Below are positions 6,006-57,440 of a stretch of 64,000 nt of DNA, piece after piece. The notes beneath the pieces are model-generated. The model did no database searches. It worked only from the letters and a program-made list of their open reading frames with translations, and was not told the DNA's origin. The stretch is from Candidatus Omnitrophota bacterium (GTDB lineage: Bacteria; Omnitrophota; Gorgyraeia; Ghiorseimicrobiales; Ghiorseimicrobiaceae). The DNA lies in assembly GCA_030681595.1 (NCBI GenBank), contig JAUXSB010000009.1:24265-88264 (forward strand), read 5' to 3'. The position numbers and the translations under genes were made by a program. Every line of letters begins with the position of its first letter. The first letter of the stretch is position 1.

Positions 6006-6221
6006 ATGAAAGAAGAACTGATCGAGGTAGAAGGCACGATAAAGGAATCTTTGCCTAATGCTATGTTTCGAGTTGAATTGGATAATAAGCACATGGTAAT
6101 GGCGCATGTTTCAGGAAAAATACGGATGCATTTTATAAGGATCCTTCCCGGTGACAGGGTAAAATTAGAGCTTTCTCCTTATGATTTAAGCCGCGGAAGG
6201 ATAATTTACAGGGTGAAATAA
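6006..6221 (+). CDS. infA: translation initiation factor IF-1
   Basis: 71 aa S1-like OB fold. Classic adk-map-infA-rpmJ order. Confidence 0.92.
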
Positions 6222-6335: not shown

Positions 6336-6411
6336 TTTAAGTTATAGGTAAGAAGTTATGAGTTATGATTTATAACTTGTAACTCTTAAGCGACTGAAAG
6401 GAGCGAAGCAA

Positions 6412-7314: not shown

Positions 7315-7419
7315 TAATAGCGTTTAGCAAATAGCGCAGAGCGGATAGTTTTTTAAAGGTTTTCTATGCGCTAAACGCTACACGCTACATGCTATACGCT
7401 AAATTGATATGGAGGGTTA

Positions 7420-8109: not shown

Positions 8110-9105
8110 ATGGGGATAAAATGGAAAGATTTTCAGATGCCGAAACGGTTAGAATGCGACGAGGCAACTTATACGCCTACTTACGGTAAATTTATTGCGG
8201 AGCCGTTTGAGCGTGGCTATGGTGTAACTTTGGGGAATTCTTTAAGGCGTGTGCTTCTTTCATCAATAGAAGGCAGCGCGGTTACTTCGGTTAAGATAGA
8301 GGGCGTATCGCATGAGTTTTCTACAATTAGCGGCGTATCAGAAGATGTAACCGATATAATCTTGAATATAAAGCAATTGGTTCTTCGCTCCTATGCCAAA
8401 ACTCCCAAGACAATTTATATAAAAGCAGATAAAAAAAGAGAGGTTAAGGCGGGGGATATTGTTACAGATGAAACTATCGAGATTCTTAACCCGGATTTAC
8501 ATATCGTTACCCTTACCGAAAATACAAAGTTTAACGTGGAAATGGAGGTTGGCCGCGGGCGTGGATATGTTACTTCCGAGGTGAATAAAAAAGACAGCCA
8601 GAGGATAGGGGTAATTGCTGTTGATTCGATATTTGCTCCGGTACGCAATGTGAATTTTTATGTAGAAAGCACACGTGTCGGGCAAAGGACAGATTACGAT
8701 AAGCTAATATTAGAGATAACTACCAACGGAAGCATTAGCCCTAAAGACGCGCTTCTTTATGCTTCGAATATATTACAGCGTCATTTAGATGTTTTTGTGA
8801 ATTTTGGGCAGCTTCCCGAAGAAGAAGAGGAGGAAGCCTTAAGTTCGGAAGAGCAAGCATTATATGAGAAACTCAAGCTTCCTATATCGGAACTTGAGCT
8901 TTCCGTGCGTAGCTCTAATTGCCTGAAAGAAACAAATATTAAGACCATTGGGGACTTAGTAAGAAGAACAGAGGCTGATTTATTGGGCTTGCGTAACTTC
9001 GGGAAAAAATCGCTTACGGAAATCAGTGAATTGATTGTTTCTTTAGGTTTAACCTTAGGGATGGACGTAGACTTAAAGAAAATAAAGAAAGAAAAACAAG
9101 GATAA
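8110..9105 (+). CDS. rpoA: DNA-directed RNA polymerase alpha subunit
   Basis: 331 aa with alpha NTD and CTD (…LSVRSSNCLK…). Position after rpsD. Confidence 0.92.
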   Translation: MGIKWKDFQMPKRLECDEATYTPTYGKFIAEPFERGYGVTLGNSLRRVLLSSIEGSAVTSVKIEGVSHEFSTISGVSEDVTDIILNIKQLVLRSYAKTPKTIYIKADKKREVKAGDIVTDETIEILNPDLHIVTLTENTKFNVEMEVGRGRGYVTSEVNKKDSQRIGVIAVDSIFAPVRNVNFYVESTRVGQRTDYDKLILEITTNGSISPKDALLYASNILQRHLDVFVNFGQLPEEEEEEALSSEEQALYEKLKLPISELELSVRSSNCLKETNIKTIGDLVRRTEADLLGLRNFGKKSLTEISELIVSLGLTLGMDVDLKKIKKEKQG

Positions 9106-9108
9106 AAA

Positions 9109-9771
9109 ATGCGCCATAAGGTAAACAAATCAAGGTTATCGCTTTCGAAAAGCCAAAGAAAGGCATTAATTAATGCCTTGGCTCGGTCAATGATCATAAA
9201 TGGCAGGATTAAAACTACCATACAAAGGGCAAAAAATGCTAAGCCTTTAGTCGAGCATCTTATTTCTTTGGGTAAAGAAGGCAGTCTTTATGCCAAGAGA
9301 AAGGCGTATAAGATATTACAGAATCATTTATTGGTTTCAAGGCTGTTTGGCGAGATTGCCCCTAAGTTTAAAGTCAGGCAGGGTGGTTACAGCCGTATTC
9401 TTCGTTTTGGCAGGCGCAGGGGCGATGGCACAGAAATGGCCCTGTTTGAATTGACCGAGGTTATCAAGGAAATAAAGCCGGAATCAGTTAAGAAGAAGAA
9501 GGAAAAAACCAAGGCTGCTGAGGCAAAGTCTCATGGCGAAGTATACCCCAAGGCGCAAGGATTAAAAGCAAAAGAAGCCGGCGTAGTTGCGTCTTCAGAG
9601 AAGCCAAAAGCGGCAGTCGAAGAAGAAAAGCGGCCTGCGGAAAAACCAAAATCTGCGCCTGAAGAGCAGAAGAAGCACAAGAATATAGAAATATATGATA
9701 AGAAGAGGGCGCATAAGAAATTTTTAGGCGGCTTAAGAAGCTTTTTCAAAAAAGAAAGAGATAGCCTCTAA
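9109..9771 (+). CDS. rplQ: 50S ribosomal protein L17, with a ~100 aa Lys/Ala/Glu-rich C-terminal extension
   Basis: An L17 core covers the first ~115 aa. It is followed by a low-complexity KKKKEKTKAAEAK…PEEQKKHK tail. Confidence 0.88.
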   Translation: MRHKVNKSRLSLSKSQRKALINALARSMIINGRIKTTIQRAKNAKPLVEHLISLGKEGSLYAKRKAYKILQNHLLVSRLFGEIAPKFKVRQGGYSRILRFGRRRGDGTEMALFELTEVIKEIKPESVKKKKEKTKAAEAKSHGEVYPKAQGLKAKEAGVVASSEKPKAAVEEEKRPAEKPKSAPEEQKKHKNIEIYDKKRAHKKFLGGLRSFFKKERDSL

Positions 9772-9851
9772 AATTCCTCTTAGCGATAACAAAAGAATAT
9801 ATTAAACCCCGCCAGAGTAATTTTTTGGCGGGGTAAATATCAAGCAGACTC

Positions 9852-11021: not shown

Positions 11022-11182
11022 AGACCAGTCCGACTTCGGCCTGCCCGAATGAAGTCAGGCGGGTCTGGCGGGTAGGCCATCATAGATGGCCGTCTATTGC
11101 GGGATAGGTAATAATAAACGAATGGCTTCCATAAATAAGCAGTAGTTTCAAGCAGCATAAAACGTATCTCTAACGGGGTAAA

Positions 11183-17036: not shown

Positions 17037-17340
17037 ATAATAGGCACATTGGCTGAGACGATTTGGTTTTGGCTATATTGAAAGCCAAACCACTGCTTTC
17101 TAGCTTTGTTGGAGCGAGACAAGGAACGAGGACGCCGGCGTAGTCGCAGTACTACGCCAAAGACGAGTGACGCAGGCGCAGCCCAAAAGCGGCCAGCCCC
17201 TTCGGGGAAGGCGCATCTTTGGCCTGCTACCGCGTTGCTCCTCCTCGAAGTAGTGCATAGACTACATCTTCGTCGTCGCGCCTTGCATCAGGCTCAAATC
17301 TTCGCCTTCCGATGTACCCATTATTTATCGGAGGCTCAGT
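17021..17340. mobile_element. MITE-like 320-bp insert bounded by perfect 20-bp terminal inverted repeats, between bioH and bioC
   Basis: 17021-17040 (actgagcctccgataaataa) is the exact reverse complement of 17321-17340. The interior is GC-rich, unlike the flanks, and contains a cccc-ttcg-gggg hairpin. The left TIR supplies the bioH stop codon. The interior shares an identical 25-mer with the hisS 3' end (50128-50152). The ORF 17106..17342 inside it is probably spurious. Confidence 0.5.
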
Positions 17341-23973: not shown

Positions 23974-24051
23974 CGGGGCGTGGCTCAGTTTGGCTAGAGC
24001 ACTTGAATGGGGTTCAAGGGGTCGACAGTTCGAGTCTGTCCGCCCCGACCA
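23974..24051 (+). tRNA. tRNA-Pro (anticodon GGG), with encoded CCA
   Basis: Manually folded. Acceptor CGGGGCG/CGCCCCG with the C1:G72 pair typical of tRNA-Pro and U8. D-stem GCTC/GAGC. Anticodon stem CTTGA/TCAAG with loop AT-GGG-GT. T-arm GACAG-TTCGAGT-CTGTC. Discriminator A, then CCA. Confidence 0.8.
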
Positions 24052-35876: not shown

Positions 35877-37838
35877 ATGTTTAAGCTTAAAAGCCCTTAT
35901 AAACCTTGCGGAGACCAGCCGCAGGCGATTAGGAAATTAGCCGATAATTTGAATAACGGTATAAGGGACCAGGTGCTTTTGGGTGTTACCGGCTCTGGTA
36001 AAACTTTTACCCTTGCCAATGTAATCGCCAAAATAAATAAACCCACGCTGGTTATCTCACATAATAAAACCTTAGCAGCCCAGCTTTACGGCGAGTTTAA
36101 AGAATTTTTTCCGGAAAATGCCGTTGAGTATTTTGTCAGCTATTACGATTATTACCAGCCGGAAGCGTATATCCCCACCACCGATACTTATATTGAAAAG
36201 GATTCTTCTATAAACGAACGTCTAGACCGCCTGCGTCTTTCAGCGACTACCTCGCTTATGAGCCGCTCAGATGTAATTGTGGTGGCTTCGGTTTCTTGTA
36301 TTTATAGTCTGGGCTCACCAGAAGACTACCGCCAGGCTCTGGTTTTTGTAGAAAAAGGAGAGAAGATAAACCGCGACAGTTTACTTTTGGAATTAGTCAA
36401 AATCCAGTATGAGCGTAATGATACGGATATATCGCGCGGTAAATTCCGTGTGCGCGGAGACGTAATTGAATTATTCCCCGCATACCGTCAAACCGCTTAT
36501 CGCATTGAATTAACAGATGATATCGTTTATTCTATTTCTGAAATAGACCCATTGACTAAAAAAACCATTTCCAAATTAGACAAAGTCGCGATTTATCCGG
36601 CAAAGCATTTTATCGTTTCCGAAGACAAAATTGATAGCGCTATTTTCTTAATATATAAGGAATTAGAAGATCAGCTTTTGGTTTTACGCAAAAATAATAA
36701 GCTTTTAGAGGCGCAGCGCCTTGAATCGCGGACAAAATACGATATGGAGATGCTTGCCGAGATTGGCTATTGCCACGGCATAGAAAATTATTCCCGGCAT
36801 TTGTCTAACAGGCTGATTGGTTCGCGTCCATCCTGCCTGATTGATTATTTTCCGCAAAATTTTCTAACCGTAATTGATGAATCACATGTGACCATACCGC
36901 AGATAAGAGGAATGTATGAGGGGGATAAGGCGCGCAAGGAAACCTTGGTGAATTATGGTTTTCGCCTGCCTTCATGTTTAGATAACCGGCCGCTAAAATT
37001 TAACGAATTTGAGTCTTTGGTGGCCCAGACGGTTTTTGTCTCTGCCACACCGAGCGATTTTGAGGTAAAAAAATCACGCGGCGAAATTGTTGAGCAGGTA
37101 ATCCGTCCCACGGGCTTAGTTGATCCTGAAATAGAAGTGCGGAAAAGCGACGGACAGATTGAGGATTTAATCAAAGAGATTGCCAAGCGCGCGGAATGTG
37201 GCGAGCGTACCCTCGTTACTACCTTGACTAAGCGTATGGCAGAGGATTTATGCGCTTATCTTAAGGATGAAGGGGTAAAAGTAAAGTATCTTCATTCGGA
37301 GATAAAAACTATAGAGCGGACAAAAATCTTAAAAGAACTGCGCGAGAAAAGTTTTGATTGCCTAGTCGGAATAAATTTACTGCGCGAAGGATTAGATTTG
37401 CCGGAAGTCTCATTGGTCGCGATTTTGGATGCCGATAAAGAAGGGTTTTTACGTTCAGAGACTTCTTTAATCCAGACTGCAGGCCGCGCCGCCCGCCATA
37501 TTAATGGCCATGTCTTAATGTATGCCGATAAAATTACCGGCTCAATGCATCGGGCGATAACTGAGAGCCGCCGCCGCAGAAAACTCCAGCTTGAATTTAA
37601 CAAAAAGCATAATATTACTCCGCGGGGAATTCAGAAAGCGATTAGAGCGTCTATTGAGCAGTGGGATGAGGCAGATGAATTAGCCAGAGATTTAACCGGC
37701 CTAACTGGCGACAAATACCTTTTAGAAGAGGCAATTTCAGAACTAGAGCGTGAAATGGAGCTTGCTGCTCGCAACCTGCAGTTTGAAAAAGCAATAGAGC
37801 TAAGAGATCAAATTAAAGCGTTGAAGAAAGGCGAATGA
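35877..37838 (+). CDS. uvrB: excinuclease ABC subunit B
   Basis: 653 aa. Walker A GVTGSGKT, helicase motifs, and a C-terminal UVR domain. Confidence 0.93.
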   Translation: MFKLKSPYKPCGDQPQAIRKLADNLNNGIRDQVLLGVTGSGKTFTLANVIAKINKPTLVISHNKTLAAQLYGEFKEFFPENAVEYFVSYYDYYQPEAYIPTTDTYIEKDSSINERLDRLRLSATTSLMSRSDVIVVASVSCIYSLGSPEDYRQALVFVEKGEKINRDSLLLELVKIQYERNDTDISRGKFRVRGDVIELFPAYRQTAYRIELTDDIVYSISEIDPLTKKTISKLDKVAIYPAKHFIVSEDKIDSAIFLIYKELEDQLLVLRKNNKLLEAQRLESRTKYDMEMLAEIGYCHGIENYSRHLSNRLIGSRPSCLIDYFPQNFLTVIDESHVTIPQIRGMYEGDKARKETLVNYGFRLPSCLDNRPLKFNEFESLVAQTVFVSATPSDFEVKKSRGEIVEQVIRPTGLVDPEIEVRKSDGQIEDLIKEIAKRAECGERTLVTTLTKRMAEDLCAYLKDEGVKVKYLHSEIKTIERTKILKELREKSFDCLVGINLLREGLDLPEVSLVAILDADKEGFLRSETSLIQTAGRAARHINGHVLMYADKITGSMHRAITESRRRRKLQLEFNKKHNITPRGIQKAIRASIEQWDEADELARDLTGLTGDKYLLEEAISELEREMELAARNLQFEKAIELRDQIKALKKGE

Positions 37839-37950
37839 AAGATCTTATTCGTCGCACTGGAATTTTCTGCCGTCTGCTACGGTTTACGACTCGTTCATTT
37901 TACGGAATTCCCTGCGGTCAGTTCCGTAATTCACTCGTCGTAACTCTTTG

Positions 37951-38316
37951 CAGACCCGCCAGAACGAAGTCGGGCTGGCATTTGCCAGTGAATTCCTAGT
38001 GTGCTTACGAATAAATCTTCCACTCGCCTTTTGTTTTGGTTGAAGAGGAATTATAATGAACCCGTTGCCCACCTCGGAGGTGGGCAACGGGTTAGATAAG
38101 CGAAATTCAGCTTATACGAAGTGCGGATTTTGTGATATTATATAGGCAAAGTTGAGATATTACGTAAGCAGAAGCTACAACTAAACGAAGAAAATAGTGT
38201 CGTTTCTGCGTAACACGTTTATTTAAAATAAGTTACACGATAAATCGATATTTCGCTAACACGTCGCTGAAAACCGGTTCCACCGCGGGCCAGCCCGACA
38301 AGCATTCTGGCGGGGG
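37951..38316. repeat. composite GC-rich element bounded by imperfect ~28-bp inverted repeats, with nested hairpins
   Basis: 37951-37979 (cagacccgccagaacgaagtcgggctggc) is the near reverse complement of 38289-38316. The interior has a perfect 17-bp-arm palindrome at 38059-38093. The terminal motif is shared with 11021-11100. Confidence 0.5.
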
Positions 38317-38385
38317 TGGAATAGGTTTGGTTCGTAATTAAACCGTTATCAACCTACGCGGTTGATATGGTTGGTAGGGTATAAT

Positions 38386-38589
38386 ATGGATACGTCATTA
38401 TTATTTGCAGGTGTAATTTTTGGTTCAATTGGTACGGCGTATTTTGTCTATGGCAAAAAACAGCAAAACTGGATTGCCTTTGTTTGTGGTATAATATTAT
38501 GCGTAACCCCTTATTTTATAGCAAACATATATTTACTAGTGGCAACAGGTATTGTATTGGGAGTTTTGCCGTTTTTAATAAAATTATAA
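38386..38589 (+). CDS. hypothetical small membrane protein (two predicted TM helices)
   Basis: 67-75 aa and hydrophobic. No recognisable family. The start could be 38362 or 38386. Confidence 0.4.
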   Translation: MDTSLLFAGVIFGSIGTAYFVYGKKQQNWIAFVCGIILCVTPYFIANIYLLVATGIVLGVLPFLIKL

Positions 38590-38665: not shown

Positions 38666-38908
38666 ATGATTGATGAGATTAAAAAATATATAGCGCAAGT
38701 CAAGGGTTCGGTCAATTGCCGCAAGGATTTTAAGTGCCTGAAATCAGATTTTAAGGATACCTGTAAAGCAAGGTATAGCGGTGAAGGTAATCAACTGGAA
38801 TGTCTTGAAGAAGAGCCTCTGGATTGTAAATTTTCCGTTTTACGCAGCGATTTATTTTTTTGCCAATGCCCAATTAGGGCATATATCGCAGAAAAATTAA
38901 AAGAATAA
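38666..38908 (+). CDS. hypothetical Cys-rich small protein (8 Cys in 80 aa)
   Basis: C-x6-C…C…C…C…C-x-C pattern. No family recognised. Confidence 0.4.
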   Translation: MIDEIKKYIAQVKGSVNCRKDFKCLKSDFKDTCKARYSGEGNQLECLEEEPLDCKFSVLRSDLFFCQCPIRAYIAEKLKE

Positions 38909-40163: not shown

Positions 40164-40175
40164 CATTAAAAAATA

Positions 40176-40251
40176 AGTTGGTTAGTTGGTTAGTTGGTTA
40201 GTTGGTTAGGTTTAACGAACCAACAAACTATCAAACTAACAAACTAAAACC
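40176..40251. repeat. (agttggtt)x4-5 tandem octamer followed by its inverted complement, between groES and groEL
   Basis: Read directly. Forms a long AT-rich hairpin. No spacers, so not CRISPR. Confidence 0.8.
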
Positions 40252-40266
40252 GACGAGCGTAAGTGA

Positions 40267-41919
<1,653 letters not shown>

Positions 41920-44817: not shown

Positions 44818-44822
44818 TGATG

Positions 44823-44903
44823 AAGTTATAAGTGGTGAGTTATGAGTTATAAATTTAAAAAAGTAACTTAAACTTGTAACTTATAATTTATAACTCATAA
44901 CTT
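44823..44903. repeat. ~80-bp AT-rich near-perfect palindrome (gagttatgagttataaatt … aatttataactcataactt)
   Basis: 19-bp arms with nested inner arms. The same agttatgagttat / ataacttgtaact motif occurs at 6353-6387. Confidence 0.8.
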
Positions 44904-44909
44904 CCAATA

Positions 44910-48879: not shown

Positions 48880-50181
48880 ATGTCATTTGTTTTTCGGGCT
48901 GTGCGCGGAACGAAAGATATTTTGCCTGATGAGGCAGAATATTTGCGCCATATTGAAGTTAAGGCGCGGGAGATTTCTTCTCTTTATGGATATAGAGAGG
49001 TTATTACTCCTGTGATAGAAAACCGCGATTTATTCGTCCGTTCCCTGGGAAAGGACACGGAGGTTATCGGAAAGCAGATGTTTATCATCGAGCGGGGAGA
49101 TGATATTATCGCCCTGCGTCCCGAAGCAACTGCCGGAGTAATCCGCGCTTATTTGGAAAATAATTTAAATAGCCGCAACTTGTTAGCCAAGTTTTATTAT
49201 TTCGGGCCGATGTTCAGGGCGGAACGTCCGCAAAAAGGGCGCCTGCGGCAGTTTCACCATCTGGGGGTTGAAGCAGTAGGTTCATCCAGCCCCTTGTTAG
49301 ATGTGGAAATTATTTCTTTGGCAGAGGTAATCTTAAAAAATATCGGCATAAGCGGTTTTAAAATAAAAATCAATACTTTGGGGTGTGTCGAAGATAAAAA
49401 AGCATTTGCTGAAAAGCTGCGCGTTATTTTAGGGGGGAAAATTTCTGATTTTTGCCAGGATTGCCGGGAAAGGTTTGATCGTAATGTCTTTCGGCTCCTT
49501 GACTGTAAAAACAGCTCCTGTAAAAATATTATCTTAGGCCTTAATATTAAGCGTACGGATTATCTTTGCGGGGAATGTTTAGAACATTTTGATACGGTTT
49601 TAGCTGGATTAAAGAATATAGGCGTAAACTATGAAGAGAGCGCGCATTTAGTGCGGGGCTTAGATTATTATACGCGCACGGTTTTTGAGATTACGCATTC
49701 AGAATTAGGCGCTCAGGATGCCGTAGGTGCCGGAGGGAGATACGATAATTTGGTGGAGGAGTTGGGCGGAGAGCCGACGGCTGCCATAGGTTTTGCTTTT
49801 GGAGTCGAGAGGCTGTTGTTAGTATCAAGTGCCAAGTGCCAAGTGCCAAGTAAAGATTTAGTTTTTTTGATTGCTTTAGGCAAGGGGGCGGAGGCAGCGA
49901 GCGTTAAGCTGTTGTATAGCCTGCGCCAAAACGGGATAAAGGCAGATACGCTTTATGAAGAGAAATCTCTTAAAGGGGCAATGCGTAGAGCTAATGATTT
50001 AGGCGCAAAATATGTTTTGATTTTAGGCGAAAACGAGTTAAAGAAAAACGTGGTAGTTTTTAAGGATATGGCTTCGGGGGAGCAAAGAGAGATAAAGACA
50101 GAAGAAGTAATAGCCGAACTTATGGCTTTGGCTATATTGAAAGCCAAACCATTGCCTTATCGGCTTAAAGGTCAAATATAG
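48880..50181 (+). CDS. hisS: histidine--tRNA ligase
   Basis: 433 aa class-II aaRS with a HisRS anticodon-binding C-terminus. Contains a (caagtgc)x3 tract (49827-49853) and a repeat-derived 3' end. Confidence 0.92.
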   Translation: MSFVFRAVRGTKDILPDEAEYLRHIEVKAREISSLYGYREVITPVIENRDLFVRSLGKDTEVIGKQMFIIERGDDIIALRPEATAGVIRAYLENNLNSRNLLAKFYYFGPMFRAERPQKGRLRQFHHLGVEAVGSSSPLLDVEIISLAEVILKNIGISGFKIKINTLGCVEDKKAFAEKLRVILGGKISDFCQDCRERFDRNVFRLLDCKNSSCKNIILGLNIKRTDYLCGECLEHFDTVLAGLKNIGVNYEESAHLVRGLDYYTRTVFEITHSELGAQDAVGAGGRYDNLVEELGGEPTAAIGFAFGVERLLLVSSAKCQVPSKDLVFLIALGKGAEAASVKLLYSLRQNGIKADTLYEEKSLKGAMRRANDLGAKYVLILGENELKKNVVVFKDMASGEQREIKTEEVIAELMALAILKAKPLPYRLKGQI

Positions 50182-54901: not shown

Positions 54902-54968
54902 CGGTTAGTGTTTAGCGGATAGAACCGGCATTTTCTACACGCTATACGCTATACGCTGTACGCTAACG

Positions 54969-57060: not shown

Positions 57061-57143
57061 GATAGGGATATAGGTTGAGGGTGGGGTAGGGCTAAAATTG
57101 CCAAGCTTGCCAATTTTTTGCTCAGGTGACGATTTTTAACGCA

Positions 57144-57273
57144 AAAAGCTCTTTTATAATTTTGGCGGCTGCGAAACTCGCTCGTCGGGGCTTACGCCCG
57201 CGGGACGAGCTCAGACATTCTCGCCGCCCAAATGTTTCCACGTTTGGGTTCCCAAAATTGTAAAAGCTCTTTT
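57144..57273. repeat. ~130-bp nested imperfect palindrome (GC-rich core gctcgtcgggg…cccgcgggacgagc, arms tttggcggc/gccgcccaaa, AT-rich outer arms)
   Basis: Read directly. Lies within a 380-bp non-coding gap before polX. Confidence 0.65.
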
Positions 57274-57440
57274 GCTAAATCGTCAATTCGCAAAAATTGT
57301 CAGTCTTGTCAATTCCTCGATGATTAAGATAAGGTGCAAATTCGCTCCGCCAACACAACAATATTCTCCATATGCAGGATTACAAGCCTTGCCATTCATA
57401 TTCATTCATTAATGGCTTTTGGCTGGTTTATTGATTAATT

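Follow-up and report, generated by a model that had tools for sequence, protein, structure and literature searches.

In the 64,000-nt stretch of Candidatus Omnitrophota DNA analysed here (hereafter the window), the uvrB gene ends with a stop codon at position 37838 and the next supported ORF begins at 38386. An earlier note on this DNA described the 523-bp gap that follows uvrB as containing a composite GC-rich element with nested stems. The gap is indeed non-coding, has no Rfam match and contains no supported gene; within 38100–38360 there is no ORF of at least 30 aa. The note had seen no signature of RNase P, tmRNA or SRP RNA either, which agrees with zero Rfam matches at gathering thresholds over the whole 64-kb window and with the ARAGORN output, which holds a single tRNA (tRNA-Pro at 23974) and no tmRNA. 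A permissive Rfam search of the region (E up to 10) gave only meaningless miRNA matches, on the structure that we call palindrome B. For annotation, the region is to be called neither a gene nor a known RNA.

The surroundings of the gap turned out to be less exceptional than had been thought. The overall G+C content of the gap is 45%, against ~42% nearby, and only its sub-hairpins are GC-rich. Other gaps in this DNA had been taken to be usually shorter than 100 bp, but 12 of those in the window are longer than 150 nt, and long hairpins occur in several. The two small ORFs downstream (38386–38589 and 38666–38908), which had been called orphans, are both also present after uvrB in the sister genome L082.

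Structure of the gap downstream of uvrB

The main parts of the gap are element A, palindrome B, block C and hairpin D (Table 1), and all four stem structures named in the earlier note are present in the sequence. Region 37820–38340 folds with z = −7.2 on the plus strand and z = −8.1 on the minus strand, scores that exclude chance.

Table 1. Palindromic elements and other features in and around the gap, and related elements elsewhere in the window
Feature	Positions	Strand	Description
Element A	37827–38031		205-nt long imperfect hairpin (inverted repeats and MFE fold)
Tip hairpin of element A	37900–37929		ttacggaa / ttccgtaa, 14-nt apical part; caps the second helix
Module copy 1	37955–37979	+	CCCGCCAGAACGAAGTCGGGCTGGC; 25-nt hairpin that branches off element A
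Tail of the block conserved in L209	38032–38058	+	holds the second copy of GTTGAAGA (38039–38046)
Palindrome B	38059–38093		perfect 35-bp palindrome; insertion relative to L209/L011; strain-specific
Block C	38097–38150	+	conserved in L209 (blastn 92.7% over 41 nt; nhmmer)
AT-rich spacer	38151–38270		known from the source genome only; hairpin at 38165–38212
Hairpin D	38271–38328		outer stem AAACC..TTCCACC / GGTGGAA..GGTTT round module copy 2 (inverted repeat, folds)
Module copy 2	38289–38314	−	CCCGCCAGAATGCTTGTCGGGCTGGC; inside hairpin D
Small hairpin	38348–38366	+	ATCAACC-TACGC-GGTTGAT; precedes the 67-aa membrane-protein ORF
Module variant	11039–11063		compensated stem GCCTG...CAGGC
Element E	17037–17311		55% G+C, −113 kcal/mol
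Element F	57108–57291		arms of ~75 nt

Element A corresponds to the first of the stems. Its arms are longer than had been claimed (37827–37870 and 37985–38031) and enclose two inner branches. Because the 5' arm starts 12 nt inside uvrB, the last four codons of the gene (KKGE) and its stop codon lie within the helix. A second helix pairs 37872–37899 with 37928–37955 and ends in the tip hairpin, whose ttacggaa/ttccgtaa stem was confirmed at 37900–37907 and 37922–37929, about 3 nt from where it had been placed. The side hairpin is the first copy of a 26-nt module described below. The terminal inverted repeats are 88% complementary over their first 17 nt, and the MFE fold joins them in an unbroken helix. 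At 205 nt, element A is non-coding and within the size range of MITEs (<~500 bp). An 8-bp direct repeat, GTTGAAGA, occurs at 37820–37827 and again in the tail of the conserved block; the right copy lies 7 nt past the right arm and is degenerate in the related genome L209, and no clean target-site duplication was seen at element A.

The fragment 37822–38036 has a predicted folding energy of −86.1 kcal/mol (z = −7.46), and none of 200 shuffled sequences was as stable. Folding of this strength speaks for a functional structured RNA. The minus strand folds on a par with the plus strand, however (−88.9 kcal/mol), and this lack of strand asymmetry speaks against such an RNA. Taken together with the lack of compensatory pairs in element A, equal folding of both strands is what would be predicted for a DNA palindrome, and not for a strand-specific RNA.

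A 54-aa ORF beginning in an ATGA overlap with the stop codon of uvrB was rejected as coding. Between the window and its nearest relative, all seven protein-changing substitutions in this ORF (7/7) are non-synonymous, and an eighth converts the stop codon from TAG to TAA. Its first 26 codons are invariant, with not even a synonymous difference. The ORF is frame-shifted in L087, another close relative, and a search of 5.8 billion proteins gave no homologue.

The third stem of the earlier note, between 37951–37979 and 38289–38316, stands as a complementarity: 37948–37979 matches 38289–38321 with 82% over 17 nt and 100% over 11 nt. Two inverted copies of a single self-folding module explain the pairing better than a long-range helix does. 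The fourth stem is palindrome B, with 17-nt arms that are 100% complementary around a 1-nt spacer. It is unique in the window, where the chance expectation for such an arm (allowing up to three mismatches) is 0.14, and has no match in viral contigs. A related hairpin, GCCCACCCCAGGGGTGGGC, is present 3' of a different gene in L209. Palindrome B was rejected as an intrinsic terminator, as its plus-strand tail (AGATAAGCG) contains no U-tract and a terminator-like call was obtained only on the minus strand, which carries no gene. It was also rejected as an integron attC site: its end GTTAGAT fits GTTRRRY, but it has neither bulges nor a matching inverse core. The module copies, for their part, do not form arrays.

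Block C contains an extended −10-like motif read from the sequence (TG at 38133–38134 and TATTAT at 38136–38141) that faces the downstream gene. A consensus promoter scan did not list this motif because its −35 hexamer is weak. The motif is also present in L209, where a different gene follows. Block C may drive whatever gene lies downstream, which here would be the small membrane-protein gene. Three TAACACG/TTACACG words (38211, 38233 and 38257) are found in the AT-rich spacer. Hairpin D shows weak nhmmer similarity to the loci L177, L183 and L135.

Distribution and divergence of element A among relatives

The uvrB locus of the closest relatives was retrieved, and the uvrB tree has the topology ((L209/L011, L087), L082), window. 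The uvrB genes of the window and L209 are 88% identical at the protein and 81% at the DNA level. Their four-fold degenerate sites are only 52.6% identical, and neutral sites are therefore saturated between these two genomes. The window, L209/L011 and L087 have element A, whereas L082, L083–85, L086 and L208 lack it. L082 branches within the element-bearing clade, and the absence of the element there argues against a functional RNA. In L082, ~95 nt separate uvrB (ending in ...KTSNTA*) from the same 67-aa membrane-protein ORF, and hence window region 37828–38333 is an insertion/deletion difference, which also rewrites the C-terminus of uvrB (the last four codons and the stop). The small hairpin at 38348–38366 lies outside the insertion and is kept in L082, as nhmmer aligns 38334–38419 with L082 positions 6010–6095.

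Two blocks of the window are also found in L209/L011: 37824–38053, at 94% identity, and 38097–38150, at ~93%. Palindrome B is missing from L209, and nothing past 38150 is related to it. Identity with L209 begins sharply at the boundary of element A, whereas the uvrB codons just before it are ~73% identical. Moreover, the 5' 89 nt of element A are invariant between the window and L209, and the first 75 nt after the uvrB stop codon contain no substitution, against 13 in the next 140 nt (p ~0.01 under a uniform rate, an estimate). An element that is 94% identical where neutral sites are saturated, with identity that starts exactly at its boundary next to diverged uvrB codons, is a point in favour of a functional RNA. 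So is the uneven distribution of the substitutions, which fits a sequence-specific function and not a plain decaying palindrome.

The base-pairing pattern of the substitutions gives a mixed answer. Two C-to-U changes in the 3' arm, at 38028 (G-C to G-U) and 38023 (A.C to A-U), result in pairs on the plus strand only, as expected if the plus-strand RNA were functional. On the other hand, the sole informative comparison shows no compensatory double substitution in element A, and three of the substitutions break pairs.

The comparison of L087 with L209 bears on the same question. Their uvrB genes are 97.8% identical and the four-fold sites of these genes 96% identical, yet in element A ~5% of the positions have changed. 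The tip loop of the L087 element carries an extra 17-nt GC-rich mini-palindrome (CCTGCCGGCAGG...), and this otherwise homologous element misses exactly the 25-nt side hairpin, that is, module copy 1. This rapid change between nearly identical genomes counts against a functional RNA. Given also the 94% identity to L209 at saturated divergence, the divergence of element A does not track that of the genomes. Parts of the element are gained and lost as discrete hairpin units.

A second copy of element A was found neither in the 64-kb window nor in 1.7 Mb of retrieved sequence, where nhmmer detected the orthologous locus only. A 28-mer of element A has no exact match in viral contigs and a 24-mer has none in metagenome contigs, a collection that is incomplete, since the JGI sample of L087 contains the 24-mer and still gave no match. 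Blastn searches returned nothing from plasmids and a single 31-nt match from phages (E = 0.5).

A 26-nt hairpin module and other palindromic elements

The two inverted copies within elements A and D belong to a 26-nt hairpin module, CCCGCCAGAAYG-loop-CGGGCTGGC, whose pattern is CCCGCCAGA(A/C)(C/U)G-loop-CGGGCUGGC, or, written otherwise, CCCGCCAGAA(C/U)G-loop-CGGGCUGGC. The window contains three copies of the module, at 37955, 38289 and, as a variant, 11039. The earlier note had proposed to look for sub-repeat copies elsewhere, and they exist in large numbers: a degenerate pattern that covers both copies of the gap and the L209 variant has at least 120 matches in metagenome contigs, with at least 113 distinct flanks that include several flank families. 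The same pattern has no match in 2.9 million viral contigs, and no module with up to three substitutions is present in 839 kb of control uvrB loci. Copies that match module copy 2 at all 26 nt are present in L126, L178, L164 and L201. According to cluster look-ups, the hosts of the module include Candidatus Scalindua (L127 and L153), a Planctomycetes MAG (L164) and a Bacteroidota MAG (L180).

The search pattern itself accounts in part for the strong conservation of the outer stem in these matches. Of the 77 copies with a variable segment of 5 nt, 66 pair its two terminal bases and so keep an extra base pair, against ~37% expected. In most cases the module caps a further outer stem that is specific to its family, and many of the module-bearing stems among the matches read TGTC-ATTCCCGC...GCGGGAAT. 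Among low-GC copies, 9 of 24 have CGTC directly 5' of the module, and in low-GC contigs, where ORF calls are reliable, the module is mostly intergenic. Several copies can be found on single long contigs among the matches listed. Its density, about one exact copy in 50 kb as judged from the one contig (150 kb) that holds three matches, is low for a classical REP. Rfam has nothing over the module in 16 metagenomic loci, and a literature search with the module sequence returned chance primer matches only. A module that is near-identical in three phyla, with neither an Rfam entry nor an associated transposase, is the most interesting by-product of this analysis.

There is no RAYT-like gene in the window, and no transposase is linked to any part of the gap. 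When the 1,659 ORFs located within 3 kb of module copies were clustered, only generic abundant families emerged, such as histidine kinases, TonB receptors, ABC ATPases and GspE/F. At two metagenomic loci (L121 and L150), RAYT-like genes with the Pfam domain Y1_Tnp lie 0.4–0.8 kb from a module copy; they score 70–79 bits with the NCBIfam model REP_Tyr_transpos, which has a cut-off of 80. These genes were rejected as the cognate of the module, being flanked by palindromes of the CAAGGCGTCCTTCA and GAAGGTTTCCTTC types and not by the module itself. An IS110-family transposase gene located 400 nt from one module copy (L188) is a single, anecdotal case. A related autonomous insertion sequence with the ends of element A was found neither in the window nor, as no plasmid and no meaningful phage match was obtained, in those collections.

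Two further palindromic elements of the window, E and F, have relatives at other positions in L209. The core of element E (17109–17310) is ~97% identical to L209 positions 8771–8973, which lie in the uvrB-coaX interval of that genome and hence at a different locus. In the window, a 36-nt hairpin has been inserted into element E (17064–17099), and a second copy of this hairpin is present at 50123–50158. Element F matches L209 positions 5978–5796, on the opposite strand and again at a different locus, the nadC-uvrB gap, which in the window is only 33 nt long. Neither element has an Rfam match. The relocation of elements E and F and the nesting of the 36-nt hairpin show that the lineage carries several families of palindromes, long and short, that move and nest. 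On the reading favoured below, uncultured Omnitrophota carry several families of nested hairpin elements, which remodel gene ends (here the C-terminus of uvrB), break assemblies and generate false ORFs.

Origin of the gap and comparison with known repeats

We consider that the gap is probably a mosaic of nested, non-coding REP/MITE-like palindromic repeats that entered the 3' end of uvrB in a single Omnitrophota lineage. The earlier note had offered a MITE, a structured small RNA or the remnant of an integration event. The MITE is the best supported of the three, given the patchy presence of element A, its long imperfect terminal inverted repeats and strand-symmetric fold, its discordant divergence and the relocated sister elements; it finds no backing in the occurrence of element A at one locus only, the lack of a clean target-site duplication and the lack of a matching transposase. 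If the mosaic reading is true, the gap consists of ordinary selfish palindromic DNA. The hairpins would then be DNA-level selfish elements that rely on copying or movement in trans, most likely in the form of single-stranded DNA hairpins, with either a transposase or template switching as the moving agent, and they would land preferentially inside existing palindromes and at the 3' ends of genes. On arrival, element A would have replaced uvrB's own C-terminal codons and stop. The uvrB transcript would carry the hairpins, and a 45-bp stem at the stop codon might block 3' exonucleases or end transcription.

A second, less probable reading takes element A, alone or together with block C, for a structured RNA that is functional and kept by purifying selection, and palindrome B and hairpin D for incidental neighbours. 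Such an RNA could be a uvrB 3'-UTR terminator, a stabiliser, an RNase III site or a small RNA derived from the 3'-UTR. We regard a cis-acting or small-RNA role of element A as unlikely, but give it some weight because the element is found at a single locus with neither a clean target-site duplication nor a linked transposase, and because of the invariant 75 nt and the C-to-U changes that pair on the plus strand. What weakens the structured-RNA option, besides the symmetric fold and the lack of compensatory pairs, is the absence of the element from L082, the changes in L087, including loss of the module, and the lack of any meaningful Rfam match.

Another possibility is that the gap is an integration or deletion scar, either a degraded gene cassette or a prophage/att remnant between uvrB and coaX. 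The uvrB-coaX interval does differ in every relative that we examined: it contains a DUF1761-like gene and element E in L209, genes of 281 and 189 aa in L083, and only the two small ORFs in L082. The gap itself, however, has no trace of the L209 gene (tblastn best E = 0.4) or of any other pseudogene, and neither an integrase nor an att-like tRNA junction, the only tRNA being that at 23974. With ORFs of at least 30 aa missing from 38100–38360 and no plasmid or phage match beyond the short phage hit, we think a scar very improbable. Still less credible is a collection of ordinary terminators and chance inverted repeats of no common origin: CACC...GGTG hairpins do close uvrB in relatives (AACACC-GCGTA-GGTGTT and then a T-run in L082, GTACACCT-ACG-AGGTGTAC in L086) and palindrome B has the same CACC/GGTG core. 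But its coding strand lacks a U-tract, canonical U-tract terminators are present at other places of the window, over 100 unrelated sites carry the module, and the fold z-scores leave no room for chance.

The mosaic that we favour resembles several known systems, but is not a member of any defined family, from each of which it departs in tag, transposase or copy number. Like the REP and BIME repeats of E. coli, the NIME and dRS3 repeats of Neisseria and the tagged REPs, the gap contains GC-rich imperfect palindromes of 20–40 nt with a variable loop, extragenic and often placed just after a gene, and as in REP mosaics, several families occur in one genome, nested or clustered. REPs have been described as nested in larger palindromes and clustered into intergenic mosaics, for example in the dRS3-containing regions of Neisseria; some REP families are common to several phyla, and some REP classes have no dedicated transposase (PMC3733652). 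REPs are also located inside uvrA and uvrB, including REP/RPE insertions in uvrB of Rickettsia conorii, and superfamilies with GTAG and CGTC tags have been defined (Di Nocera et al. 2013, PMC3733652). In the metagenomes, ATTCCCGC...GCGGGAAT stems, which are dRS3- or CGTC-1-like, enclose many of the module copies. Unlike the tagged REPs, the two copies in the gap have neither a GTAG nor a CGTC tag and are preceded by ...GCAGA and ...CCACC. The stem of the module is formed by 5 bp, an A/G-G internal mismatch and 3 bp, with an unpaired CCC before it, while the published CGTC consensus has a stem of 8–9 bp that starts with A-T pairs, and a CCA tail. Compared to classical REPs, its copy density looks lower and a cognate RAYT was not found.

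Element A also resembles MITEs and the Rickettsia palindromic elements (RPEs), which are non-coding, 100–400 bp in size, equipped with long terminal inverted repeats and able to form long hairpins. It shares with them the patchy distribution among close relatives, and these elements can likewise enter coding regions and supply codons. Elements of this kind can also carry outward-facing promoters, as Correia elements do. Element A differs from them in that it has been seen at one locus, with no clean target-site duplication and no parent insertion sequence with matching ends. The two inverted copies of one hairpin in the window, and the RAYT-like genes near the module in L121 and L150, are reminiscent of REPIN-RAYT systems, although the window copies are 310 bp apart, against tens of bases in a typical REPIN, and palindromes other than the module flank those genes. 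The GC clusters of yeast mitochondrial DNA are also short GC-rich palindromes scattered in an AT-richer genome. They enter each other and the ends of genes, and no enzyme is known for them. They belong to another domain of life and have no sequence relationship with the gap, so that the likeness is an analogy only.

As a more speculative and doubtful extension, the module might be a previously undescribed palindromic element common to Omnitrophota, Planctomycetota (including Scalindua) and Bacteroidota that spread horizontally into palindrome loops by non-RAYT machinery, and would then be a new REP superfamily, or it might be the recognition hairpin of a widely shared protein; likewise, elements A and E might each act as a structured RNA specific to the lineage and not be junk. 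Its many natural insertion contexts make the module a good handle on how REP-like hairpins that have no RAYT are copied.

Module copies beside inverted repeats and transposase genes

Several metagenome loci place the module, the 26-nt GC-rich hairpin, close to inverted repeats or transposase genes. The contig L194 (1,969 bp) has perfect 123-nt inverted repeats at both ends (1-123 and 1847-1969); each repeat starts with the module, and two ordinary genes lie between them. This arrangement reflects either an assembly break induced by the repeat or a composite element. The unit of these terminal repeats is also present at positions 1-137 of L188, where a gene for an IS110-family transposase (537-1559) follows 400 nt downstream. 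In both L121 and L150, a module copy is located 0.4-0.8 kb from a RAYT-like gene, that is, a gene resembling the Y1-type transposase genes associated with REP palindromes. The REP_Tyr_transpos scores of these two genes are slightly under the cut-off, and each gene has paired palindromes of its own on its flanks (CAAGGCGTCCTTCA / TGAAGGACGCCTTG, and GAAGGTTTCCTTC).

Features located in the window and in the metagenome loci
Feature	Location	Description or counterpart
RAYT-like gene	L121 733-2069	Y1_Tnp
RAYT-like gene	L150 5950-7231	Y1_Tnp
Composite GC-rich intergenic element	window 11022-11110	
Element E	window 17037-17311	L209 8757-8980
Element F	window 57108-57291	L209 5796-5978, opposite strand
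Small ORF 3' of the gap	window 38386-38589	67-aa membrane protein
Small ORF 3' of the gap	window 38666-38908	80-aa cysteine-rich protein

Module variants and other long hairpins of the window

The further composite intergenic element listed in the table contains, on the minus strand, a module variant with a compensated stem (CCCGCCTGACTTCATTCGGGCAGGC, 11039-11063), together with a half module (TCTGGCGGG) and the hairpin GGCCATCATAGATGGCC. Likewise, the form CTGCCCGAAT...CAGGCGGG adjoins the module in the metagenome locus L135, and partial forms (CTGCCCGAATAG) do so in L168 and L170. The hairpin CCCCGCCAGAGTAATTTTTTGGCGGGG (9805-9832), located 3' of the ORF 9109-9771, has the word CCCGCCAGA in common with the module.

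Element E, another long-hairpin element (275 nt, 55% G+C), is predicted to form a very stable fold (-113 kcal/mol) and has no match in Rfam. Its core (~150 nt) shares ~97% identity with a sequence of the sister genome L209 that lies at another locus; between the two, one inner hairpin is swapped for another and three pairs are compensated. Element E is a candidate for a lineage-specific ncRNA or a mobile element. Relative to L209, it carries as an insertion one of the two window copies (17064-17099) of the 36-nt hairpin GGTTTTGGCT-ATATTGAA-AGCCAAACC; the other copy (50123-50158) falls within the final codons of the ORF 48880-50181.

The long hairpin of element F, which also lacks a match in Rfam, has arms of ~75 nt. 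An element 75% identical to it is present in the nadC-uvrB gap of L209, unlike the window's own nadC-uvrB gap, which is just 33 nt.

Small ORFs and AT-rich repeats

The two small ORFs that follow the uvrB gap, to whose products no Pfam family could be assigned, had been regarded as orphans in the earlier note. Both are conserved after uvrB in the sister genome L082, and they are therefore probably real genes. Upstream of the membrane-protein ORF, the AT-rich spacer contains three TAACACG(T)/TTACACG words with a spacing of 22-24 nt (38211-38264), which may represent an operator or a further small repeat.

Several other gaps contain long AT-rich palindromes (6340-6390, 7315-7419, 40164-40278, 44818-44909 and 54902-54968) assembled from short units in tandem, namely heptamer-like repeats (GTTGGTTA), units of GTTATGAGTTATAA and repeats of the ACGCTA type. 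The Logan contig L001 terminates within the palindrome at 40164-40278.
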